Shown: positions 19,938-52,029 of the stretch, in pieces | Position numbering within the stretch: the stretch's first letter is position 1 | How the letters are laid out: each line of letters opens with the position of its first letter | From: Phototrophicaceae bacterium | GTDB lineage: Bacteria; Chloroflexota; Anaerolineae; Aggregatilineales; Phototrophicaceae | Direction: 5' to 3' | NCBI GenBank assembly: GCA_965249085.1 | Contig: OZ252218.1 | Span: forward strand, 501,859-565,858 | DNA: 64,000 nt | Made by a program: the position numbers and the translations under genes | Notes under the pieces: generated by a model | Databases searched by the model: none | Told to the model about the DNA's origin: nothing | The model's input: only the letters and a program-made list of their open reading frames with translations

Positions 19938-20591
19938 TTAGGTTAACTCCAACAGGACCTTGTGCGGCAACACCAGACGCAGGCGGTCTTCCAATTCACT
20001 CAGCAGCATGGCGGTGGCGCCCCAGACCTTGTGTCCGACCATATCATAATAGGGCACACGTACTTCATGGCCGCGGATAATCCGCTGCTCAGCACGTTTA
20101 AAGCGCGGCTGCAGCAAGTCTTCCAGCGCAAAGCAGAAGACCTCTTCCACTTCCACGAGATTGGGGACGAAAGCGGGCAAGCCATCGTATCGCGCAACCG
20201 TGGGAAAAACATCATGGTGAGATGCCGGAATATAAAAGCGCGGCAAACTGCCCAATACAGATACGCGCCCGCCGCAAATGCCGATTTCCTCGTATGTTTC
20301 CCGCAGCGCCGTAGCGGTCAGGCTCTTGTCCTGCTGATCCTGCTGTCCGCCGGGAAAGCTCACCTGGCCGCTGTGACCGCGCAGGCTGGCGTTGCGCAAG
20401 GTCAAGACGACATTTAGCCGATCATCACGGTTGAGGAAGACCAGGATCATCACAGCCGCACGCTTCGGGGGCGTATTCCGCTTCTGCCAGCCGCGTGGAT
20501 TGGGCGCCATCCGCTGCTGTGCCTCTACCGAGTTCTCGGCCCGCAGCGACAGCGCCTGCCGGATGTGCTCAAAATCAATCAGTCTAGCCAT
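19938..20591 (-). CDS. NUDIX hydrolase, CoA pyrophosphatase type
   Basis: SGQVSFPGGQQDQQDKSLTATALRETYEEIGI is a Nudix box preceded by the NuCoA-type LRxxxxHxGQVxFPGG motif. Confidence 0.8.
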   Translation of the reverse strand: MARLIDFEHIRQALSLRAENSVEAQQRMAPNPRGWQKRNTPPKRAAVMILVFLNRDDRLNVVLTLRNASLRGHSGQVSFPGGQQDQQDKSLTATALRETYEEIGICGGRVSVLGSLPRFYIPASHHDVFPTVARYDGLPAFVPNLVEVEEVFCFALEDLLQPRFKRAEQRIIRGHEVRVPYYDMVGHKVWGATAMLLSELEDRLRLVLPHKVLLELT

Positions 20592-20888: not shown

Positions 20889-21158
20889 TCAGACTATTGC
20901 GTACCAAGCCCGGCGCTTGCGCAATGAAACGCCCGCTTCCGCACCACTGCGCCGCGCTGTTCGTACGCGCCCGCGCGAATCGATATGAACCTGCCCCGCC
21001 TTCTGCAACCTCTCGAATTCTTCCGGCGTGATCGCCGGGGCGGGTTCGCCACCCAGGCGCTCCAGCCGATCTCCCAAATCGTCGGCCGACGCACCCTCAG
21101 GTGAATCGCTCATGTTTTCGTCCAGGCTATCGTTCGGATTCTTATCTTGATCGCTCAT
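20889..21158 (-). CDS. Small hypothetical protein (acidic N-terminus, basic C-terminus)
   Basis: ATG 21158 preceded by GAGGAAAGAG gives MSDQDKNPNDSLDENMSD.... No recognisable domain. Confidence 0.4.
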   Translation of the reverse strand: MSDQDKNPNDSLDENMSDSPEGASADDLGDRLERLGGEPAPAITPEEFERLQKAGQVHIDSRGRVRTARRSGAEAGVSLRKRRAWYAIV

Positions 21159-21438: not shown

Positions 21439-22221
21439 TCAACCAAACTGTCCCCTTGCCAGACCCTGATAGCATTGCAGCGCGCGCTCGACTACCGTAT
21501 CAAAATCGTCCAAGTCTCGGAGATCGTCGTAGGCGACGTAGAGGCCCGTGTACGGTTCGGAGATCGCTTGCGCCGGTACTTTCAGCGGAACCTGGATATA
21601 ACCGGTCGGCTCTGACCAGGCATAGGCATAAATGTAGGGTCTATCCAGACCCGGGCTAAAAGGCGCGAATCCGAAAGCTATCTGCGGGTCGCTGTGCTCG
21701 TTGGCACCGCCGCTCGGAAACCAGATGAAGGCCAGGTCGAAGTGATGCGGCCAAAGCACGATCGGCGTCATGAAGCCGCTCAGTTTGCCGCGAAATCTCG
21801 CCAATGCGCCGTATACGGCATTTAGCGTCTGCAAGTATTCTGCTGCCATTGCCGGCTCAATTTCAAACGCGGAATCGTGCGTAATATGTTTCATGGACGG
21901 ATTGATGTTGTAGCCGCAGTCGCCGGAGATTGTCAGCAATCGTCGCATGAGTGACATCTGGGAATGATCACTGACATCGAAGGCGAATACCGTGTTATCG
22001 CCGCGGACAAAGCGCAGTTGCAGGTCGGCAAAGTCAAAGTGAAGCACACCGCCGCAGCGCATCCTGGTTGTCGATATGCCCGTGGCCGTCACGTCAAGAC
22101 TGAAATGCATGTCATTGGGCAATGGGTCTGAGCAAGCCACGCGAATCGCGCCGACAACCTGCGCGATCTGATGCATTGCGTCACGCGTCGATTCCCAATT
22201 TATCAATGTCGCTAGCGCCAT
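21439..22221 (-). CDS. Conserved hypothetical protein, DUF5996-like
   Basis: Its layout resembles DUF5996 (N-terminal W..T...MH.IAQVVGAIR, central FDF...L, C-terminal F.GK.S....LWPHHFDLAFIWFSG). The family assignment is from memory only. Confidence 0.45.
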   Translation of the reverse strand: MALATLINWESTRDAMHQIAQVVGAIRVACSDPLPNDMHFSLDVTATGISTTRMRCGGVLHFDFADLQLRFVRGDNTVFAFDVSDHSQMSLMRRLLTISGDCGYNINPSMKHITHDSAFEIEPAMAAEYLQTLNAVYGALARFRGKLSGFMTPIVLWPHHFDLAFIWFPSGGANEHSDPQIAFGFAPFSPGLDRPYIYAYAWSEPTGYIQVPLKVPAQAISEPYTGLYVAYDDLRDLDDFDTVVERALQCYQGLARGQFG

Positions 22222-27303: not shown

Positions 27304-27822
27304 TTACCTGGTATCAATCAGTCGGAAATATTCGTCAGCCAGCGCTTGCCAGGGCGCCAGATCCCAATAACGCCGCGCCGCGCCCGACGGGGAAGGCGCC
27401 ACGTAGACGCGCGTCCGTCCCACGAACTGATCCTGCCAGCCATATGTGACAGCGGCCGCTGCCGATTTGCGGGTCCAGGCGCGGCAGGCAGTCTTGCTGG
27501 TAAATGCCAGAATCTGCGGTTGAAAGCAGCGAATCTTGTCGCTGAGACAATCTGCCCCGAAATCGGCCTCCGTCAGCGTATGATCGGCGCCAGCGCTATA
27601 CTTTGCCACATCGGTCAGCCCGATACTCAGGCGCAGCAAGGCGCGAAATTCGGTCGGCGCGAACCGCCGAGGCGTCAAACCTGTCAAATGAAGCGTAGGC
27701 CAGAAAGCATTCGTTGGGTTGGCGTAATAGGCGCCTTCCCGCGCCGATACCACGCTGGCCGCCGTCCCACAGAAGACCAGGATCAAACCGCACTCCAGGA
27801 CATCGGGCAGTACCTCAATCAT
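27304..27822 (-). CDS. Uracil-DNA glycosylase superfamily protein (Mug/TDG-like)
   Basis: LILVFCGTAASVVSAREGAYYANPTNAFWPTL is the UDG-superfamily motif 1 region. ATG 27822 overlaps the MBL stop (ATGATTGA). Confidence 0.65.
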   Translation of the reverse strand: MIEVLPDVLECGLILVFCGTAASVVSAREGAYYANPTNAFWPTLHLTGLTPRRFAPTEFRALLRLSIGLTDVAKYSAGADHTLTEADFGADCLSDKIRCFQPQILAFTSKTACRAWTRKSAAAAVTYGWQDQFVGRTRVYVAPSPSGAARRYWDLAPWQALADEYFRLIDTR

Positions 27823-28594
27823 GCAATTCCAGCCCACTATCGACTACGATCAAGTTTTTCTGATGGGTCTCATGGTAGAATTCCTCGAGTTTGGGCGGAA
27901 GCACGAACTCGAGGTTGCCGACCAAAGCCCTCAAATAGGCCACCGTCGCCTCAAGACATTCGCGACCCGGCACGCTGCCATGAGACGGAATCGCAAGCTC
28001 CAGTTCGTCCTTGCCCGCCCACAGCTCGAGCGAGGCAAGCCAACTGCTCAGCAGCCGGGAGCTGTTGACAACCGGCAATGGCGTTTCGATGGCGTCGCCG
28101 CCGAGCAACACGCCCCACTCCGGAATCCAGCCGACAATGCAGTCGATCGTGTGCCCCGGCAAATGATGCAATTCCAGCGTGACGCCGCCCAAATCCAGCG
28201 AAAGGCGAGCGGTAAAGGTGAGATTCGGCGGCACGAGATCGACGCTATCCCACCTGCCTGATTCCGCCAACTGCTTGCGGCGCAGCAGTATGGGAATATC
28301 GTCGTCGAAACGCTTCAGACACTCAGCATGCGCGATGATATTCAGGGGCTTCCGCGCCAAGCCGGCAGTTCCCCAAATATGATCCCAGTCGCCATGACTG
28401 TAAACCACTTGAAAGGGCTTGTCGCCTAACAGCGGTGTCAGAAGCTGCATGTCGTTGGGATGGGTCAATGTGTCCCAGACTACCGCTTGCTTGTCGCCGA
28501 TGACGACAACCGCGCGCACCTGCATGTCAGGCGCTGACACATGCAAAGTCCATAGATTGGGGCTGACTTCTTGAAGCTGCTGCATCTCGATCAC
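27815..28594 (-). CDS. MBL-fold metallo-hydrolase
   Basis: The VVYSHGDWDHIWG (HxDxDH-type) motif and later His/Asp ligands (HHLPGHT). Confidence 0.8.
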   Translation of the reverse strand: MIEMQQLQEVSPNLWTLHVSAPDMQVRAVVVIGDKQAVVWDTLTHPNDMQLLTPLLGDKPFQVVYSHGDWDHIWGTAGLARKPLNIIAHAECLKRFDDDIPILLRRKQLAESGRWDSVDLVPPNLTFTARLSLDLGGVTLELHHLPGHTIDCIVGWIPEWGVLLGGDAIETPLPVVNSSRLLSSWLASLELWAGKDELELAIPSHGSVPGRECLEATVAYLRALVGNLEFVLPPKLEEFYHETHQKNLIVVDSGLELHD

Positions 28595-31897: not shown

Positions 31898-31930
31898 GCG
31901 TCACAATTGCGCGACCGAGACTGATTGCTT

Positions 31931-32482
31931 ATGTCAGGCCAAGACAACGAAGACCGCTACGAAGATATCCTCAATAGAATCGCCCAACGTAATCCCTTTG
32001 GCAAAGCGCGCCCTGAGGCTAAACCGCAAACGCCGCAGGACCGCGCGCTCAATCTCGTCAACGCTTTTGACGCTCTCGCCCGGCTGTCGCGGGATGAATA
32101 CGAGCGCTACCTCTGTTACGGACCCAAATCATGCCGCGGATCGGCTTGGTCGGGGGCCGCAATCTGGTACCACCGCAAGGGATATCACGGCTATCAGACG
32201 CTCTATCTTCTCGGTGTCTGGGCGCATTACAGCGAAAGCGACATCGTGTTGACCGTCGGCATACGCCAACGGCCCTATCGCGCGCCGGTCTATGACGCCG
32301 GCGTTTATCGCGTCGCCATCAGGAATAATTTCCGCATCTATTACGATGATGCCGGCGGACCGCCGGGCGAATCTGATCGCCTGCTCTACCAATCGCGCTT
32401 CAAAGAAAAAGAGCGACTGTCACAGCGACAATCGCTGCGCGATATTCTGGGAGCCTGGCGTCGGGAGATTGAATCCGGCTAG
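31931..32482 (+). CDS. Hypothetical protein ending in ...EIESG, convergent with the E1 gene and overlapping it by 4 nt
   Basis: ORF with ATG at 31931 (the track start 31925 is a TTG). No domain recognised and the RBS is weak. Confidence 0.4.
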   Translation: MSGQDNEDRYEDILNRIAQRNPFGKARPEAKPQTPQDRALNLVNAFDALARLSRDEYERYLCYGPKSCRGSAWSGAAIWYHRKGYHGYQTLYLLGVWAHYSESDIVLTVGIRQRPYRAPVYDAGVYRVAIRNNFRIYYDDAGGPPGESDRLLYQSRFKEKERLSQRQSLRDILGAWRREIESG

Positions 32483-33402
32483 TCGTCTTCTTCGATGACG
32501 ATGTCCGTGGTCAATCCGGACGCCGCCAGATCGTCGAGCGAAATGCTGCCCGTGTCTTCCTGGGCAAGAATACTGACACTCTGCTTAAGTCGTTCGCCAC
32601 AGACCAAACAGTCGGGATCACGCGCGATCTCGATCCAGATGCCGGTATGCGGATCGCTTTCTTGCCCCTCGATAATGTCCATATATGTATTAGCAACAAT
32701 GAGGGTATTGGCCGGCATCTCCTCATGCGCGTTCGTGCCGCGCAAAAGCTCATTGATGATCAGATCCGTTTGAATGCCGGCCACCTTGGTCACGTTAACC
32801 CAAAGACCTGGCTCAGCCGCCAATGTACCTTCCTCCCGGATCATGCCGTAGTCCAGATCGCCGACCGGGTTCATCGAAACCTTGGCGCCCTCGCGCGTTG
32901 CTTCCGACCAGCAGGCGTAACAGGGACCAATAAGTGGTCTGATGATGACGTGATCGCCGCCTTCGCCCCGTTCATAGACGCCGGCGTAGGATGCGCTCAC
33001 GCGTTTTTCCAGGCATTTCTCGTTGATGGCGTATTTCACCTGTTCATGGTCCACCGCCACGACAAGAATATCCACCTCTTCCAGGCAATCCCAGTGATCC
33101 TCGATCAGTCCTTCGCGCACCTCTATTTGCGTATCCTCGTTGCGGTGGCGGATCAAATCGGCGACTGCCGTCGCCTTGTTCGTTCCGACATATCGGGAGT
33201 CAGCCACGTGCCGCGTCACGTTGCCGCGTTCCAGCAGATCCCCATCGACCAGGACAAACTTCCCGACGCCGCTCATCGCCAGGCTCAAGGCCACGAATCC
33301 GCCGCCTGAACCCAAGCCGATCACGCCCACCTTTTTCCGGGCGAGCCGTTCCAGATTATCCGAGCCAATCAGCCTTTCGACACGTTCCCAAATGCTAGTC
33401 AT
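32479..33402 (-). CDS. E1-like ThiF/MoeB-family adenylyltransferase
   Basis: KKVGVIGLGSGGGFVALSLAMSGVGKFVLVDGDLLERGNVTRH, AVDHE, and two CxxC pairs (GPCYACW, DCLVCG). ATG 33402 lies 1 nt after the JAB stop at 33404-33406. Confidence 0.85.
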   Translation of the reverse strand: MTSIWERVERLIGSDNLERLARKKVGVIGLGSGGGFVALSLAMSGVGKFVLVDGDLLERGNVTRHVADSRYVGTNKATAVADLIRHRNEDTQIEVREGLIEDHWDCLEEVDILVVAVDHEQVKYAINEKCLEKRVSASYAGVYERGEGGDHVIIRPLIGPCYACWSEATREGAKVSMNPVGDLDYGMIREEGTLAAEPGLWVNVTKVAGIQTDLIINELLRGTNAHEEMPANTLIVANTYMDIIEGQESDPHTGIWIEIARDPDCLVCGERLKQSVSILAQEDTGSISLDDLAASGLTTDIVIEEDD

Positions 33403-33403
33403 T

Positions 33404-34675
33404 TCACCGTGCCTCTTCTTCTGTCGGCTCATCATCAATGATAGGATTGCTATCGTTCAGACAGTCATCTGCCGAGCGCTCGGAATCTGCTTCCATTTGG
33501 TTGGCGGAGTCAGGTTCGTCTCCACCTTCGTCCATCAATTCGTCGTCCAGGAAAACCGGGATTGCCACCGTGGTCGGCTGGCGCAAACCCCGCGCGACTT
33601 CAATTGCGATGACGTAATCAATGAGGTATTTGTCGTTTGACCACTGCCATTCCGGCGGGTCGGGAATTGGCGTTGCAATTTCCCACAAAGATTGAAAGGT
33701 CGCGACCGGATCCATCAGGTCCAAACCATCCAAAAACGGCGCTTCGAATGCCTGCGGCGCGCGTTCAGGATAGTCGTGCTGCGTGACAAACAAGAGGAAG
33801 TTCGACGCGCCTTGCCGGATTGTAAAAAAACAAAATTCCAAGGGCACTTCGCCATCGCATTCATAGAACAAGGTGCGAACCAGCAAGCCATCATCGGCCA
33901 TCGCCAATGTTTCGCTGGTGAGCCGGTCCGGCAGCACAACGTGCCAGCCGTATTTCATCATCTGGGGCAGCTGCTCGGCCGACACCACTTGCGGATGCAC
34001 TGGCTGGAAAACGCGGACATCGCGATGGATATACCACCAGTCGACCCGCATATCTGTGCCGTTGTCCATCGGTACGGTGATGTAATTCACTGACAATTCC
34101 GATTCGCCGATGATCGACGCATGCCCGACTGTCACGATCGGCACCAGCAGGAATTCCATTGCCAATTCTTCATCATCGAGCCAGCCGAGCGCTGTCATAA
34201 GATCGCCGTGGCTGGGCTGGATCATTGAGCCGGGCTGCTTGTGCCAATCGCCAAGATAACGCAGCGGCACATCAAAGCGGTCGGGCAAGGCAGCAGAACC
34301 GCGGTGCCTCTCCCGATGAAAATGCCAATTCTCCTGCAGCCACCAGATGGTCTCATCCTGCGAGGCATCGCCCTGCTGAAACGTATGGGAGCGCCTCACG
34401 GCCGTCTCATCGGGCGAAATCGTATCGAGCACATAGATGGTGGGCAAACCCTCCGGTGTATCGTCTTCAACGATAAAGCCCACCATGGCTTCACCTGTCT
34501 CATCGGCCATGAATTGGCTCGCGGCCGAGAGCATCCTGGCTACCGCCCGCCGCGACAAAACCAGGTTGGGCACGATACCGCGTGAAATCATTGCCATCCC
34601 CCGCAAGCGCTTCCTGATGTGTTCGATTTCCAACTGCATGAGCTTGAGAAACTCGCGCTCATCCATGGTCCGCAT
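33404..34675 (-). CDS. JAB/MPN-domain protein with a variant JAMM motif and an unassigned C-terminal region of about 200 aa
   Basis: GEAMVGFIV (Glu region), then WHKQPGSMIQPSHGDL with exact H-x-H-x7-S-x2-D spacing but Gln at the second His (CAG at 34237..34235). ATG 34675 lies 2 nt after the E2 stop. Confidence 0.75.
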   Translation of the reverse strand: MRTMDEREFLKLMQLEIEHIRKRLRGMAMISRGIVPNLVLSRRAVARMLSAASQFMADETGEAMVGFIVEDDTPEGLPTIYVLDTISPDETAVRRSHTFQQGDASQDETIWWLQENWHFHRERHRGSAALPDRFDVPLRYLGDWHKQPGSMIQPSHGDLMTALGWLDDEELAMEFLLVPIVTVGHASIIGESELSVNYITVPMDNGTDMRVDWWYIHRDVRVFQPVHPQVVSAEQLPQMMKYGWHVVLPDRLTSETLAMADDGLLVRTLFYECDGEVPLEFCFFTIRQGASNFLLFVTQHDYPERAPQAFEAPFLDGLDLMDPVATFQSLWEIATPIPDPPEWQWSNDKYLIDYVIAIEVARGLRQPTTVAIPVFLDDELMDEGGDEPDSANQMEADSERSADDCLNDSNPIIDDEPTEEEAR

Positions 34676-34677
34676 GA

Positions 34678-35151
34678 TCAACGTCTCCGGCGGCGTGGCA
34701 AGGGTGAACTGGCTTTGATGCGCTCCTCGATGCCGGGCCAATTCCCGGTTGAGCGCCAGGTGTAATAGGCGTAGAGCCATTGAATCGCCCAGCCGCCTAC
34801 GGTCACCGCCGTCGATTTCGAGGGGTTCCAGCCGTATTGTTCGCCATCTTTCGGGTTAAAGAGGCAGAGCTGCCCATCCTCGTATTGATGTTTTTCGCTG
34901 TAGATTCGCGGTTTGATGCAATAGGCTTCGGCCGGGCGGTTGGGATATTCTTTCGGATAGACGATCTTCAAGCTGTGATATGGTGACTCGAGAATGCTCA
35001 TGCTGATCTCGACAATGCCTTGCCAATAGAGCAAGCCACCGAATGGGGGAACCACCAACGCGAAAGTGTTGCCAAAGGTGGCTTTCATCGCCTCCACTTC
35101 CCAGATGAGACGGGACGAGACATGTCTGCGCGACCCCCACCAATTGGACAT
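34678..35151 (-). CDS. Prokaryotic E2 / UBC-fold ubiquitin-conjugating-like protein
   Basis: LYWQGIVEI...HSLKIVYPKEYPNRPAEAY...KHQYEDGQLCLFNP mirrors the eukaryotic UBC core: a YPxxPP flap, then an H-x4-G-x-L-C-L active-site loop. The Cys codon is at 34866..34864. ATG 35151 lies 9 nt after GGAG; the track start 35160 is a GTG. Confidence 0.8.
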   Translation of the reverse strand: MSNWWGSRRHVSSRLIWEVEAMKATFGNTFALVVPPFGGLLYWQGIVEISMSILESPYHSLKIVYPKEYPNRPAEAYCIKPRIYSEKHQYEDGQLCLFNPKDGEQYGWNPSKSTAVTVGGWAIQWLYAYYTWRSTGNWPGIEERIKASSPLPRRRRR

Positions 35152-35194
35152 AAGCTGCACTCCGCACCACGGTTATCCCAATCTTAACAGCTTA

Positions 35195-35223
35195 ACTCTA
35201 TTGCCCATCGCGCTTATTGTCCA
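35195..35223 (-). promoter_or_regulatory. Candidate sigma70-type promoter for the E2-JAB-E1 operon
   Basis: The minus strand reads TGGACA-N17-TAGAGT, about 45 nt upstream of the E2 ATG. This is motif resemblance only. Confidence 0.25.
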
Positions 35224-35507
35224 GTATCAGCACACCCTTTAAGGCGCACTAATCAAGGTCTAATGCGGGCCGGACAATCTCGTCGCCGCAGGGCATCGCG
35301 GCTGGTTTAACCGCCTGCAATGACCGCGCACGCGCTGATTAAATGCAAGATGTACGGGATGTCAACTCTCACACGTCTCTAACGCAAAAGTGAAATTTAC
35401 CACAAGCGTGGACAGACGCTTCAACTCTCTGCTAAAACAAAAAGGTCAAGCGGGATGGCACGGCTTCAGCACCTGTTCACATACCCGATTGACCTTCGTC
35501 TATCATT

Positions 35508-35543
35508 GCCAATCCTAACCGGGATTGGCGGCCAATTCAAGGA
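35508..35543. promoter_or_regulatory. Nested palindromes (GCCAATCC-N6-GGATTGGC, then ATTGGC-G-GCCAAT) just upstream of the Fe-ABC SBP gene
   Basis: Perfect 8-bp inverted repeat at 35508-35515 / 35522-35529. An overlapping 13-nt palindrome ATTGGCGGCCAAT lies at 35524-35536. Both are 17-45 nt before ATG 35553. Confidence 0.4.
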
Positions 35544-35552
35544 GTTCACTGT

Positions 35553-36572
35553 ATGTCCCAGCACCGTTTTGTACTGGCAAGCCTTGTTGCAGCGCTAATT
35601 GTGCTGCTCGCCGCCCAAATTCTGACGAGAGCGCAAGATACGCTTACCATCTATTCAGGCAGAAACGAAAGCCTGGTCGGACCCATTCTGGCCCAATTCA
35701 CCGAAGACACGGGCATCGAAATCGAAGTCCTCTATGGCGGAACCAGCGCCGTCGCCAATCAGATCCTCACAGAAGGCGAAAACAGCCCTGCCGATGTCTT
35801 CATAGCCCAGGATGGCGGCGCGCTTGGCGCCTTAGCCGCCGCCGAAATGCTGGCGACCTTGCCCGACGAAACTCTGGAACGCGCGGTCGATTCTGCCTTC
35901 GTCTCGCCGGACGGCGTATGGATCGGCTTGAGCGGACGCGCGCGAGTGCTGGTCTACAATCCGGAGCTGCTAGAGGAAATGGGACTGCAATTGCCAGATT
36001 CTATTCTGGACCTGACTGACGAGACCTGGCGTGGACTGGTAGGCTGGGCGCCGACCAATGCGTCATTCGTCGCCAACATCACGGCGATGCGTGTGCTGCT
36101 CGGCGACTGCGATGCCGAAGATTGGCTAGTTGGCATGATCGCCAACGATGTGCACGCTTATCCGAAGAATACGCCGATCGTCCAAGCCGTCATCAATGGC
36201 GAGGTGGTCGTTGGATTGGTTAATCACTACTACCTTTTCCGTTTTCTGGCGGAAGATCCGGAAATCTCCGCGACACTGCATTTCTTCCCCGGTGGCGATG
36301 TTGGCTCGCTAGTTAACGTGGCTGGCGCAGCGATCCTGGAGAGTAGCGATCAGCCCGATGCAGCGCTGGAACTGGTCAACTATCTGCTCAGCGATACGGC
36401 CCAGGCATACTTCGCAGAAACCACCTACGAGTACCCGCTGGTAGACGGCATCGAACCGTCGGTTGAAATACCTGCGTTGGCGGACATCGAAGCGCCGGAA
36501 ATCGACCTATCCGAACTCGACGATCTACAAGCAACGCTGGAAATGATTGAAGAAAGCGGTGCGCTGAATTAG
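35553..36572 (+). CDS. Fe(III)-type ABC transporter substrate-binding protein (FbpA/AfuA-like)
   Basis: A signal/TM segment, then TIYSGRNESLVGPILAQFTEDTGIEIEVLYGGTSAVANQILTEGENSPADVFIAQD, typical of iron(III) SBPs. Confidence 0.8.
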   Translation: MSQHRFVLASLVAALIVLLAAQILTRAQDTLTIYSGRNESLVGPILAQFTEDTGIEIEVLYGGTSAVANQILTEGENSPADVFIAQDGGALGALAAAEMLATLPDETLERAVDSAFVSPDGVWIGLSGRARVLVYNPELLEEMGLQLPDSILDLTDETWRGLVGWAPTNASFVANITAMRVLLGDCDAEDWLVGMIANDVHAYPKNTPIVQAVINGEVVVGLVNHYYLFRFLAEDPEISATLHFFPGGDVGSLVNVAGAAILESSDQPDAALELVNYLLSDTAQAYFAETTYEYPLVDGIEPSVEIPALADIEAPEIDLSELDDLQATLEMIEESGALN

Positions 36573-36634
36573 CGCAGACAGCACATCAGCAGCGAGGACG
36601 ACAGCACACTTCGCCCTCGCCAGCGTGGAGAATA

Positions 36635-38269
36635 ATGCAGTTACCGAGCGTCATCCCACCAAGGTTTAGACCTAACGGACACCATCATTCTGTATTGGCG
36701 CGCTGGCAGGTTGGCAACAGGCAGATCGCGCAAGGCGCAAGCCTGGCTGTCGTTGCCGTTGTCATGGTGCCGGTCGTCTATCTGGTGATCGGCGCAATCA
36801 GCGCGGGCCAGGACGGTATCGACTATGTGCTTCGTACACGGACCTTGCTCATCATCGCCAACAGCATCGCGCTTATGCTGGTGGCGACGCTGTGTGCAAC
36901 AGTCATCGGCCTACCCTTCGCCTGGCTGACCGGCCGCTGCGACCTGCCAGGGCGCCGCGTCTGGCTGGTCCTGGGCTTGGCTGCGATGGTCATGCCCTCA
37001 TACCTGACGGCGGTGACTTACAGTGAGGCCTTTGGTCCCAAAGGAATTCTGCAGTCGATGCTGGAGCCCTTCGGCGTCGACCGTTTGCCCGGGATCAAAG
37101 GATTTGTAGGCGCGACACTGACGGTGGCCTTCGTCACGTTTCCCTATATTGTCCTGCCCGTGCGCGCTGCGATTCTGCGCTGCGATCGCAGCCTGGAAGA
37201 GGCAGGTCAAAGTCTGGGATTAAATCGGTGGCAGGTATTTCGTCAGATTATTTTCCCGCAGCTGCGCCCGGCGCTCTCCGCCGGGATGCTCATGACCGCC
37301 CTCTACAGTTTGAGCGACTTCGGCGCGGTCGCGGTCATGAACTTCAACGCCTTTACACGCGCGATATTCATTCAAACCGAGTCATATCGCATGGATAAAG
37401 CGTCGGTGCTGGCGCTGCTGCTGATTGTGATGACGCTGTTGCTGCTTTATCTTCAGTCGCGCTTGCAGAGTCGTGGCCGGCACTATCGCATCGGAACCGG
37501 CGCGGCGCGCGTTCCAGAGACCATGCCCCTGGGCAAGTGGAAGTATCCGGCGCTGCTCTTCTGCAGTGCCGTGATCTTCGTCGGCGTTGTGATTCCCGTG
37601 CTCGTGCTGTTCAAATGGCTATTGGGGCATACGCTCACGAATCCTATCCAGGTTTCGATGTCTGAGCTGGTGAGGAACACGGTCGGTGTCAGCGCCGTTT
37701 CAGGGATTGTCGTGACGCTTGCCGCTTTTCCCTTGGCGCTCCTGGCAATGCGCGCCACAACACGCTTCAACCGCGTACTGGTCAATCTTGCCTACACCGG
37801 CAACGTCCTGCCCGGCATCGTTATCGCCCTCGCGCTCGTATATTTCGCCACTCAGAACGCCCTGAGTCTTTATCAAACATTGCCGCTCCTAATCATCGGC
37901 TATGCCATTCGTTACCTTCCGTTCAGCATCGCCGCTACAGAAAGCGCCTTCACCCAGATCAACCCACGCTTTGAGGAAGCCGCCCGCAGTCTGGGTCTGT
38001 CGGCCTGGGCGACGCTGGCAAAGATCACAGTGCCCTTGGCACGCGGCGGAATCCTGGCGGGTTTGGCGCTAGTCTTTCTTAACGTGATGAAGGAACTGCC
38101 GACTACGCTTATCCTGCGCCCAATCGGCTTCCGTACCTTCGCCGTCCGCATCTGGAGCGCCTACGATGAGGCGTTTCTCTCGTCAATTGCCTTACCCGGA
38201 TTGTTGCTAATCGTAGTGTCAGCTTTCGCCTTGGCGATCATCCTCCGGCGAGAAAATGCGGTTAGCTAG
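36635..38269 (+). CDS. Iron ABC transporter permease (duplicated FbpB-type, about 12 TM)
   Basis: 544 aa with two MetI-like permease halves, each with an EAA-type loop (LEEAGQSLGLNRWQVFRQIIFP; FEEAARSLGLSAWATLAKITVP). Confidence 0.85.
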   Translation: MQLPSVIPPRFRPNGHHHSVLARWQVGNRQIAQGASLAVVAVVMVPVVYLVIGAISAGQDGIDYVLRTRTLLIIANSIALMLVATLCATVIGLPFAWLTGRCDLPGRRVWLVLGLAAMVMPSYLTAVTYSEAFGPKGILQSMLEPFGVDRLPGIKGFVGATLTVAFVTFPYIVLPVRAAILRCDRSLEEAGQSLGLNRWQVFRQIIFPQLRPALSAGMLMTALYSLSDFGAVAVMNFNAFTRAIFIQTESYRMDKASVLALLLIVMTLLLLYLQSRLQSRGRHYRIGTGAARVPETMPLGKWKYPALLFCSAVIFVGVVIPVLVLFKWLLGHTLTNPIQVSMSELVRNTVGVSAVSGIVVTLAAFPLALLAMRATTRFNRVLVNLAYTGNVLPGIVIALALVYFATQNALSLYQTLPLLIIGYAIRYLPFSIAATESAFTQINPRFEEAARSLGLSAWATLAKITVPLARGGILAGLALVFLNVMKELPTTLILRPIGFRTFAVRIWSAYDEAFLSSIALPGLLLIVVSAFALAIILRRENAVS

Positions 38270-38507
38270 CGCGGCAACTTGTTCACGCAGGTCGCTCCGC
38301 AGCGTCGCCTTACCGTCCGAGATTGGCGCCGGGAGCCTGCGGCTCGAAAACGACTTGCCGGCGATGCTGATCACGTCGTCAACCGAAGGCGCTGCAATAG
38401 CCAAACTCAGCCTGTCAGTCTCTTGCGCCAAGTCGATTTCCCCTTTATGCATTTCACTTTTGCACTATGCTTGATCGCGTGGATTAGTTAGACGTATCGC
38501 TACGGGC

Positions 38508-39557
38508 ATGGAATACTCGCTTCAAGCCGACCAGCTCACCAAACACTACAATGGCCAATCACCGGCCGTAAATGACATTACGCTCAGGGTACGCCCCAGC
38601 GAATTCCTGACAATACTCGGTCCGAGTGGCGGCGGCAAAACGACGACGCTGCGTCTGCTCGCAGGTTTCGAAAAACCATCAGGCGGTCGTATCCAGATTG
38701 GCGAAAACATCGTTGCCGATGAGGCTCATTTCGTACCGCCAGAGAAGCGCAAAGTTGGTATGGTCTTCCAGGACTACGCGCTGTTTCCACATGTGAATGT
38801 CGCGGAAAACATCGCCTTTGGCATACGCGAGCCACGGACGAGCCGTCAGCACAAGGTTGAACGACTGCTCTCTCTAGTCGGCTTGTCCGCGTATGCCGAG
38901 CGCATGCCGCATGAGCTTTCCGGCGGCGAACAGCAACGCGTGGCTTTGGCCCGCGCTCTTGCTCCCAATCCTGACATTCTGCTGCTAGACGAGCCTTTCT
39001 CCAATCTCGATACGGGCTTGCGGTCGCAAGTGCGAAGCGAAGTCCGTCATATCCTGCTGGAGACCGGCACGACAGCCATATTTGTCACGCATGACCAGCA
39101 CGAAGCGCTCAGCCTGTCCGACGAGATCGCGGTGCTATTTGAAGGTAAACTAGTGCAGGTTGCGACGCCGCATGTGATCTACAATCGTCCCGCCAACGTG
39201 CGTGTGGCAAAGTTTGTCGGCGAAGCGAATTTCCTCCTCGCCGAAGCCCACGGCATGACCGCTGACAGCCGACTGGGCGAAGTCAAGCTGTTTCACCCAA
39301 AGACTGGGCCAGTGCAGCTAATGATCCGCCCGGAAGCGTTGGCGGTCAACTTTGATGAGCATGGGACGCGGGCAACCGTGCGCTGGCGTGAGTTCTATGG
39401 GCATTATCAACGGCTGGGCCTGGCGCTTACCGATGGCACGGAATTAATCGCGCATACGGGCGTCGATCGATATTTTCAGCGAGGCAACAACGTTTCGGTG
39501 TCACTCGCGCTGCCCGCGTTGGCGTATGACACGGCTAGCCAGATCATGCTGTCATGA
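38508..39557 (+). CDS. ABC transporter ATP-binding protein (FbpC/PotA-like, with C-terminal TOBE-type domain)
   Basis: Walker A GPSGGGKTT, signature LSGGEQQRV, Walker B LLLDEP. Confidence 0.9.
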   Translation: MEYSLQADQLTKHYNGQSPAVNDITLRVRPSEFLTILGPSGGGKTTTLRLLAGFEKPSGGRIQIGENIVADEAHFVPPEKRKVGMVFQDYALFPHVNVAENIAFGIREPRTSRQHKVERLLSLVGLSAYAERMPHELSGGEQQRVALARALAPNPDILLLDEPFSNLDTGLRSQVRSEVRHILLETGTTAIFVTHDQHEALSLSDEIAVLFEGKLVQVATPHVIYNRPANVRVAKFVGEANFLLAEAHGMTADSRLGEVKLFHPKTGPVQLMIRPEALAVNFDEHGTRATVRWREFYGHYQRLGLALTDGTELIAHTGVDRYFQRGNNVSVSLALPALAYDTASQIMLS

Positions 39558-51814: not shown

Positions 51815-52029
51815 GCGGGCTTGGCTAACCAGCCTCATAGCGACGCTAACCGCAGACAGCAGGTGGGCATCCGCCCTTAATTACCTGCCGAGGAACGCGC
51901 AAAAGCCATCATTCAGCAATGTATGTTTGGACTCTGTGGCGACCTCAGTTTACGGGTCGCTTGTCCGTTTTGTTTGGGTCAGCGCATGCCGCCACCGGTT
52001 GCAATGGCTGACGAAGAAAGGAGCGACAC

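Follow-up and report, generated by a model that had tools for sequence, protein, structure and literature searches.

Type II CBASS (cyclic oligonucleotide-based antiphage signaling system), Bil and Bub, all of them described or predicted to act against phages, conjugate either a beta-grasp ubiquitin-like protein (Ubl) or the tail of a signaling enzyme. In BilABCD operons, the gene for the beta-grasp Ubl (BilA) comes first and is followed by those for the E2, the deubiquitinase (DUB) and the E1, and the Bil E1 joins an inactive and an active adenylation domain to a CYS domain that carries the catalytic Cys (PMC10557695). A Cys-less E2-fold domain occurs in class 6e (Bub) operons (PMC1779556), and the Bub E1 has no catalytic Cys, the pathway being marked by serine oxyesters, a peptidase-E1 fusion, multi-beta-grasp Ubls and a Ser-His protease (PMC11601596). 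Here, a stretch of 64,000 nucleotides from a Phototrophicaceae bacterium (Chloroflexota; GenBank assembly GCA_965249085.1, contig OZ252218.1, positions 501,859 to 565,858), referred to as the window, was analyzed. It holds a triad of minus-strand open reading frames (ORFs) that lie head to tail, are translationally coupled and encode, in this order, an E2, a JAB protein and an E1. An earlier note, made from the sequence of the window, had treated this triad as an orphan. This description does not hold, as homologous operons regularly carry a further small gene, here called SP (small partner), directly after E1; in the window it lies 11.3 kb away. SP very probably belongs to the E2-JAB-E1 system.

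With BilABCD (classes 6d/6c of Iyer et al.), the unit shares separate E2, JAB and E1 genes in the order E2-DUB-E1, a catalytic Cys in the E2, the lack of an E3, and a modifier precursor that may need C-terminal trimming. The differences are considerable. The Bil Ubl gene leads its operon, whereas here a small gene without a recognizable beta-grasp comes last; the E1 is a single adenylation domain of 307 aa with no conserved Cys outside its CxxC pairs; the JAB is fused to a predicted UEV/RWD-like domain and has an H-x-Q motif; and the context is housekeeping with vertical inheritance, rather than a defense island with CapH/CapP. Judged by sequence models, type II CBASS is the nearest system, through the Pfam family of the E2 orthologs, the Cap2-type match of the E1 and the Cap3-like fold of the MPN domain. 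It also provides a precedent for conjugation without a beta-grasp protein, by attaching the C-terminus of an enzyme. In contrast to CBASS, however, E1 and E2 are unfused here, neither a CD-NTase nor an effector is present in ~170 loci, an E2-like domain is added to the JAB, a small protein dedicated to the system is the candidate substrate, and a mobile or defense context is missing.

Other comparisons concern the modifier and the E1. Pup is ligated by the glutamine-synthetase-like enzymes PafA/Dop, via the side chain of a C-terminal Gln/Glu. Like Pup and UBact, the candidate modifier described here is small and largely disordered, lacks a recognizable beta-grasp and is conserved in its C-terminal part, and the function is apparently housekeeping and lineage-wide; unlike them, it is accompanied by E1, E2 and JAB enzymes, and Pup and UBact have no sequence similarity to SP. 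MccB and PaaA, the best solved homologs of the E1, adenylate or modify peptides without a beta-grasp fold, but their N-terminal peptide clamp is absent here and those systems have neither an E2 nor a JAB partner. Bub is another bacterial E1/E2-type pathway with a Cys-less E2-fold domain and an E1 without a catalytic Cys; here, by contrast, Cys96 of the E2 is invariant, the JAB peptidase has a gene of its own, and no beta-grasp gene is present. The proteins are also separate in comparison with the 6A-MBL type, which combines an E2-E1-JAB triple fusion with an adjacent specialized metallo-beta-lactamase (MBL) gene; its model, NF058523, gives 51 bits on the E1 and 12 bits on the JAB against a cut-off of 320. 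ThiF/MoeB sulfur-carrier systems differ in that the window has no ORF of 50-140 aa with the GG end of a carrier and in that the E1 stays below the equivalog cut-offs.

The unit matches none of the classes 6A, 6b, 6c, 6d or 6e of Iyer et al. 2006 (PMC1779556), and literature searches found no published description of the cluster. The earlier suggestion that the unit may lie outside the described classes is upheld by this comparison with the features of type II CBASS, Bil, Bub and 6A-MBL, none of which fits. What marks the set is the combination of separate E2 and E1, a JAB-UEV protein with an H-x-Q motif, an E1 without a catalytic Cys, SP with a C-terminal motif that is basic-aromatic and invariant, PCMT-like and NUDIX genes as frequent accessories, and vertical inheritance amid housekeeping genes.

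A small gene follows E1 in related loci

SP came to light in diverged relatives (JAB 45-55% identical), in which the interval from E1 to the next annotated gene holds an ORF of 91-113 aa; it is also called as a gene in public annotation. In the window, tblastn locates SP on the strand of the triad, downstream of E1 (Table 1), and the block between them contains housekeeping genes only. In those GTDB loci of the window's clade that have enough flanking sequence, SP is about as far away, at 8.6-8.8 kb.

Linkage was measured in a metagenome scan seeded with SP only, in which a locus was counted as informative if its sequence upstream of SP exceeded 1.3 kb (n = 41). E1 is directly upstream of SP, on the same strand, in 36 of these loci and within ~1.3 kb in 2. 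The other 3 have no E1 within 10 kb of SP; because their SP proteins are 97-98% identical to that of the window, they belong to the window's clade, in which the separation exceeds the available flank. On metagenome contigs that are long enough, the order E2-JAB-E1-SP is complete at JAB identities down to 32-40%, and SP follows E1 on the same strand in three diverged lineages. By an approximate estimate, most loci have an in-frame start for SP no more than ~15 nt from the stop codon of E1; the gaps derived from called genes are 3 (locus L085), 13, 21, 21, 37 and 181 nt. Since the linkage persists where the ABC importer and the convergent ORF that flank the triad drop out, SP is the one robust fourth partner.

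These results modify two statements of the earlier note. It had assigned neither a modifier nor a target; its negatives on adjacency hold, and SP is now a strong candidate partner, displaced by 11.3 kb. It had also held that a Ubl or CD-NTase gene merely relocated in this genome would make the unit a member of a described class. A partner gene is indeed relocated here, but it is not recognizable as a Ubl or CD-NTase and does not lead to any described class.

The N-terminus of SP is acidic, disordered, rich in Pro and Asn, and variable. Its last ~56 residues are nearly invariant (RLERLGGEPAPxITPEEFxRLQKAGQVHIDxRGRVRTxRRSxxEAGVSLRKRRAWY) and are followed by 0-8 variable residues. The 56-aa core in the window is RLERLGGEPAPAITPEEFERLQKAGQVHIDSRGRVRTARRSGAEAGVSLRKRRAWY, to which the tail AIV is added, so that the protein ends in ...RKRRAWYAIV. 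Over 92 loci, the mismatch fraction in the core is 0.12/0.07/0.55 at codon positions 1/2/3; SP is therefore a real protein under strong purifying selection. Among the 31 loci with all four genes, the median identity to the window is highest for the SP core (88%), followed by E2 (73%), E1 (57%) and JAB (45%). The candidate partner is thus more conserved than its own enzymes, while lacking a recognizable ubiquitin fold. The order is the same as that of ubiquitin, E2, E1 and DUB and, by this analogy, is the one expected of a hub that has to fit every enzyme as well as the targets.

In sequence searches, SP has no match in Pfam, NCBIfam or the PDB, and it is not demonstrably a Ubl by its modeled fold. 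The residue directly after the invariant WY was compared in 62 sequences: it is G in 28, A in 11, V, T or S in 15 and another residue in 6, and is absent in 2, which means that G, A, S, T or V occupies this position in 54 of the 62. An invariant motif followed by a variable tail would fit a precursor that is trimmed to a defined C-terminus. The charges of the proteins are distributed unevenly: the E2 ends in a poly-Arg tail, PLPRRRRR (34678-34710), the tails of the JAB protein and E1 are acidic, and SP combines its acidic N-terminus with a strongly basic C-terminus, so that the charges of SP and the enzyme tails may be complementary.

Two further genes are frequent accessories of the system. 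A PCMT-like methyltransferase gene comes after SP in 32 of the 41 loci, a NUDIX hydrolase gene lies within 2.2 kb in 27, and at least one of both is present in 40. The best NCBIfam match of the PCMT-like protein is the methyltransferase of RiPP-type (ribosomally synthesized and post-translationally modified peptide) FxLD systems (TIGR04364, 267 bits, cut-off 320), and the graspetide model TIGR04188 also matches. This protein has a C-terminal extension (L075:12667-13845 and equivalents). An invariant Asp in the HID[SA]RG motif of SP could be its target. The 64-kb window contains no PCMT-like gene, which has been either lost from this genome or moved beyond the window. The NUDIX protein of the window matches, in addition to Pfam NUDIX, the NCBIfam CoA pyrophosphatase model at 2e-27, under the curated cut-off. 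Directly upstream of SP, on the same strand, lies a gene for a DUF5996 protein.

The triad encodes an E2, a probable JAB-UEV fusion and a single-domain E1

The gene boundaries given in the earlier note were re-read and are identical. The E2 gene ends with TGA at 34680-34678 and the ATG of the JAB gene follows at 34675, after 2 nt (tc); the JAB gene ends with TGA at 33406-33404 and the ATG of E1 follows at 33402, after 1 nt (a). Profile matches recover all three members (PADLOC models, Pfam ThiF), so that the set is a genuine E2, JAB and E1, as had been claimed. E1 and E2 are separate, in contrast to Cap2, and the JAB gene lies between them in 80 of 80 GTDB loci. Absence of a beta-grasp gene from the 392-bp spacer upstream of E2 was also borne out, as that spacer has no minus-strand ORF of more than 23 codons. 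One weak sigma-70-like site is present at 35223-35195, which is not above chance expectation. Over the whole window, no ORF of 50-140 aa with a GG end was found.

The E2 is recovered by the PADLOC E2 models (best 6.8e-15) and weakly by Pfam UQ_con (0.016). In a phmmer search of the PDB it matches UbcH7-type E2s (3e-5) and the CBASS E2 8hsb (2e-4), and its orthologs carry the precomputed Pfam annotation PF26395 (E2-CBASS). Cys96 is kept in 100 of 100 homologs, at the codon that had been proposed for the catalytic Cys (34866-34864), and its loop, HQYEDGQLCLFNP, is nearly invariant. The E2 is also the member of a 90%-identity cluster of 301 sequences, and within the window's clade it is 90-96% identical, versus 50-88% for the adjoining genes.

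The JAB protein has no Pfam match; PADLOC JAB models match aa 38-190 (best 1.4e-7). An AlphaFold2 (AF2) model was used for structure comparison (predicted local distance difference test, pLDDT, and predicted template modeling score, pTM, in Table 1). The top Foldseek matches of its MPN fold are BRCC36/Abraxas, CSN5, Rpn11 (including the Caldiarchaeum enzyme), AMSH and Cap3 (9ild), with E-values from 6e-8 to 1e-5. The JAMM motif reads E59...H145-K-Q147...S155-x-x-D158, the codon of Q147 being 34237-34235. In place of the second zinc-ligand His, Gln is found in 108 of 111 family sequences, and the E, H, S and D are invariant. The MPN/JAMM signature that had been read in this gene is thus correct as to the fold, but the motif is non-canonical. 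Because the Gln is kept in nearly the whole family and the other motif residues do not vary, the H-x-Q site appears from the alignment to be a conserved variant, not decay.

The architecture of this protein is unchanged among its homologs down to 25% identity. Its second half had been considered a possible modifier built into the JAB protein. In the AF2 model, however, aa ~244-361 form an alpha-beta4-alpha-alpha topology with pLDDT >90, and a DYPxxxP flap is invariant. Aligned with hhalign to the system's own E2 family, this domain gives a probability of 76% (E 2e-5), over a region that runs from helix 1 through the beta-meander to the flap and ends before the Cys loop; the MPN domain, used as a control, gives 0.1%. 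RWD is the only Pfam family matched by more than one member (2 of 23, best E 0.004), and a profile search of PDB sequences with the UEV-like domain matched nothing meaningful. The C-terminal half is probably a Cys-less E2 fold of UEV/RWD-like type that serves as a docking module and not as the modifier; the topology, the hhalign result and the RWD matches argue against a built-in Ubl. An MPN domain that has a conserved H-x-Q at its metal site and is fused to a UEV domain would be a new architecture among MPN proteins.

The E1 matches Pfam ThiF at 5e-28 and the PADLOC Cap2-type E1-E2 models at 1.5e-24. Its nucleotide-binding glycines, R64 (the Arg finger) and D118 do not vary. Among its cysteines, only C161/C164 and C265/C268 are invariant; these form the two CxxC pairs noted earlier in this ThiF-type protein and, by analogy with other E1-like enzymes, probably bind zinc. 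The protein consists of a single adenylation (ThiF) domain, in which a conserved crossover-loop Cys and a CYS domain were not found. Its closest solved homologs are MccB (6e-12) and PaaA (1e-10), followed by UBA5, MoeB, Cap2 and ThiF. The N-terminal peptide clamp is lacking, as the alignment begins at residue 18 of the E1 and at residue 111 of MccB. The NCBIfam models for ThiF, MoeB and UbaA match at 1e-20 to 1e-14, all far below their curated cut-offs, and no significant Pfam match other than ThiF was found on the E1, hence no rhodanese domain.

A distant group has a canonical JAMM motif

A profile search with distant JAB members returned 11 proteins, from which the contexts of a more divergent group were taken. 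In this most distant group (L084, L168-170), the JAB protein has the canonical H-x-H motif, and E1 is again followed by a small ORF, whose product is disordered at its N-terminus and ends in ...VSLRKQRTWG+KKAKKAAKK or ...VTLNKPRTWG+EEASE. At L084:9958-10371, two copies of the module stand in tandem, each with a KPRTWG end, in likeness to a polyubiquitin-style precursor. SP and the distant ORFs have the motif VSLRK[RQ]R[AT]W[YG] in common, with hidden Markov model E-values of 5e-4 to 2e-2 in a three-sequence database, and their homology is suggestive only. The E2 of this group is longer (184-188 aa). Before it lies a gene for a conserved protein of 260-287 aa (L084:6637-7416, L168:4630-5412, L169:2648-3511), which appears to have a hydrophobic segment at the N-terminus that may span the membrane, a charged stretch rich in Glu and Arg, and a distinct C-terminal region. 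This protein may be an extra component or a target in the H-x-H branch.

Weighing SP as the modifier

On balance, we lean towards the reading that SP is the modifier of a vertically inherited, four-part conjugation system of Anaerolineae-type Chloroflexota, made up of E2, JAB-UEV, E1 and SP. In such a system, the precursor of SP would extend past the invariant ...SLRKRRAWY by a short variable tail. The JAB domain would trim this tail and would later reverse the conjugates. The E1, of the homodimer type and without a catalytic Cys domain, would adenylate the C-terminus of SP, and Cys96 of the E2 would accept SP as a thioester, probably straight from the adenylate; a direct attack by Cys96 is suggested because the E1 has neither a crossover-loop Cys nor a CYS domain. 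With no E3 involved, the E2 would then attach SP to a lysine of the target proteins, and the Cys-less E2-like domain fused to the JAB would probably dock the E2 or SP. In the window's genome, the SP-NUDIX pair is parted from E2-JAB-E1 by the 11.3-kb housekeeping block, and it is because of this separation that the triad looks orphaned. The analysis itself establishes which domains the proteins have, that their catalytic residues are conserved, that SP and E1 are linked, that SP is relocated here, and how the parts rank in conservation. What we infer in this scheme is the modifier role of SP, the cleavage site, the direct transfer from the adenylate to the E2, and the housekeeping role.

Several observations weigh against it. 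Compared with the PDB, the SP profile finds no ubiquitin, ThiS, MoaD, SAMP or Pup, and gives only a marginal and probably spurious match to CodY. The single-sequence AF2 model of SP is poor (pLDDT 58) and bears no likeness to a beta-grasp. Different residues follow WY, so SP has no conserved C-terminal Gly, and ordinary proteins, the PCMT-like neighbor among them, often have a variable tail beyond their last conserved element. The similarity of SP in the main group to the small ORFs of the distant group covers ~14 residues and is weak. In the window's genome, SP is coupled more tightly to PCMT/NUDIX than to E1 and may belong there functionally. The H-x-Q variant of the JAB might be a poor peptidase, and it is by inference that we have E1 bind and activate SP. 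The fuller version of the proposal, in which SP is a ~90-residue, largely disordered modifier without a recognizable beta-grasp, transferred by E1 and E2, processed by JAB-UEV and serving a housekeeping or regulatory role across the Chloroflexota lineage rather than phage defense, is accordingly stated tentatively, at somewhat less than an even chance.

The strongest rival makes SP a substrate, adaptor or regulator, with the triad acting as Cap2 acts on the CD-NTase, by activating the C-terminus of some other protein, which might be an enzyme of the operon or might be encoded elsewhere. It is rather unlikely, although the membership of the E2 in the E2-CBASS family, the match of the E1 to Cap2-type PADLOC models, the unfixed C-terminal residue of SP, its basic tail that resembles a nucleic-acid-binding one, and its staying with NUDIX when the triad is apart would all suit it. 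The NUDIX proteins that were compared have different C-termini, however; PCMT and NUDIX are each dispensable, which leaves SP as the only near-universal extra partner; and SP is the most conserved component, which would be unusual for a mere substrate. Affinity to CBASS also underlies the idea that the triad is a decayed or orphaned type II CBASS or Bil module, non-functional after losing its CD-NTase and effector or its Ubl, given that all three proteins match the CBASS-derived E2, JAB and E1-E2 models of PADLOC and that one zinc ligand of the JAB is replaced. This is very unlikely: relatives exist in 335 GTDB species with fixed synteny, the E2 is more conserved than its neighbors (90-96% versus 50-88% identity), the other catalytic residues are invariant and the Gln itself is retained, and no locus has a CD-NTase, an effector or a defense-island context.

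A different alternative is maturation in the manner of a RiPP, in which the E1, the PCMT (by converting the invariant Asp60 to an aspartimide or isoaspartate) and the JAB would turn SP into a modified peptide or cofactor instead of a protein tag. That MccB and PaaA are the best solved E1 homologs, that the PCMT-like neighbor found after SP in most loci is nearest to the FxLD and graspetide methyltransferases, and that SP has the invariant Asp in HID[SA]RG speak in its favor. We nevertheless consider it improbable, given that the invariant Cys and extreme conservation of the E2 imply a transthiolation or conjugation step, the E1 has no MccB/PaaA-type peptide-clamp domain, the PCMT is absent from the window and from several lineages, no exporter or immunity gene is present, and RiPP core peptides do not typically have, as SP does, 56 aa at 88% identity. 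Least probable of all, to the point of being hardly credible, is that the E1 is a ThiF/MoeB-type activator of a sulfur carrier for cofactor or thionucleoside synthesis: its matches to the NCBIfam ThiF, MoeB and UbaA models would speak for this role but are far below the cut-offs, it has no rhodanese domain, the window has no GG-ended ORF of 50-140 aa, and a sulfur relay requires neither an E2 with an invariant Cys nor a JAB-UEV protein.

If SP is the modifier as we favor, E1-E2 chemistry would be independent of the ubiquitin fold and, in bacteria, would not be limited to immunity. With SP as a tag, the set would also be a tractable four-gene system for the question of how substrates are chosen without an E3.

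Distribution and genomic context

A scan of GTDB with one genome per species found relatives of the unit in 335 species, and locus details were taken from the best 80. All of these 80 loci are from Chloroflexota (with Phototrophicaceae, Aggregatilineales, Anaerolineae or Anaerolineaceae labels), and E2, JAB and E1 are colinear in every one. Among the 595 homologs of the JAB protein, all those with names are from Chloroflexi/Chloroflexota metagenome-assembled genomes, many of them complete chromosomes of 2.6-4.5 Mb; the contig of the window measures 4.33 Mb. The system is thus chromosomally fixed in a large lineage of Chloroflexota, with sponge and marine symbionts among its members, and evolves like a core function.

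Within the window's clade, the locus is syntenic, with the ABC importer, the divergent E2-JAB-E1, a convergent ORF (about 183-185 aa), a hydrolase and a GNAT gene; beyond the GNAT gene comes a divergent block with a 372-aa unknown protein, an MBL, a UDG and a dUTPase. The surroundings in the window bear no likeness to a defense island, as they consist of GatB, SSB, dUTPase, UDG, aminotransferase, SDR and similar genes. Near the triad, no CD-NTase, effector or beta-grasp gene was found in the window and ~170 related loci. For CD-NTases and effectors, this covered the window neighbors, the precomputed Pfam annotation of L001, L002, L084, L085, L087 and L168-170, and the gene families of diverged loci. 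The genes adjoining the triad across the loci checked are those of the ABC importer, GNAT, hydrolase, PCMT-like, NUDIX and kinase families. The earlier statement that no nucleotidyltransferase, effector or beta-grasp gene is adjacent therefore extends from the window to all related loci examined. Given the fixed synteny, the high identity of the E2 and the housekeeping surroundings, the pattern is that of a vertically inherited core function and not of a mobile immune module.

Table 1. Positions of the triad, its protein domains, SP and neighboring features in the window
Feature	Positions	Strand	Evidence or remark
E2 (UBC-fold) conjugating enzyme, 157 aa	34678..35151	-	PADLOC E2 models, phmmer PDB, Cys96 conservation
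JAB/MPN - UEV-like fusion protein, 423 aa	33404..34675	-	595 homologs; AF2 pLDDT 83, pTM 0.76
MPN/JAMM domain, aa 35-195	34091..34573	-	PADLOC JAB, Foldseek
Probable UEV/RWD-like Cys-less E2-fold domain, aa ~244-361	33593..33946	-	AF2, hhalign, Pfam RWD
Variable acidic disordered JAB tail, aa 383-423	33407..33529	-	pLDDT <50; sequence unconserved among homologs
E1-like adenylating enzyme (ThiF/MoeB/MccB type), 307 aa	32479..33402	-	Pfam ThiF 5e-28
SP, small conserved protein, 89 aa, candidate modifier	20889..21158	-	tblastn, E1 linkage in relatives
NUDIX hydrolase (CoA-pyrophosphatase-like)	19938..20591	-	Pfam NUDIX 1e-12
Divergent promoter region, common to Fe-type ABC importer	35152..35552	.	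no small gene
Fe3+-type ABC importer (solute-binding protein, permease, ATPase)	35553..39557	+	divergent from E2
Convergent 185-aa ORF	31925..32482	+	window's clade
MBL-fold gene	27815..28594	-	four genes from E1
DUF5996 protein gene	21439..22221	-	directly upstream of SP
Ribosomal protein L10 leader	51832..51975	+	Rfam RF00557

The neighbors of the triad were considered as possible partners. The Fe3+-type ABC importer is adjacent in 58 of 58 loci within the clade but in only 7 of 14 diverged GTDB loci and 4 of 16 metagenome loci, and a functional link was rejected; the adjacency is probably residual synteny, though shared regulation is possible. At the other end of the triad, the downstream gene is convergent, as had been noted, with the correction that it overlaps the E1 stop codon by 4 nt. 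This 185-aa ORF is found in the window's clade only, at 51-92% identity and with invariant W, Y and R residues, and has no match in Pfam, NCBIfam, PADLOC, PHROGs or a PDB profile search. It was discarded as modifier or substrate, its C-terminal residue being unconserved (G in 48 of 120 sequences) and the ORF being missing from 4 loci within the clade and from all diverged ones. A link to class 6A via the MBL-fold gene was likewise rejected: this gene lies outside the operon, the diverged loci lack it, and NF058523 is far below its cut-off.

Two minor features of the neighborhoods were recorded. At L002:969-2893, a DarT/Macro pair (a DarTG-like toxin-antitoxin) that is absent from the window is inserted beside the ABC importer of one syntenic genome. 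In the window, the sole Rfam match is the ribosomal protein L10 leader, which scores 44.2 bits against a gathering threshold of 44.

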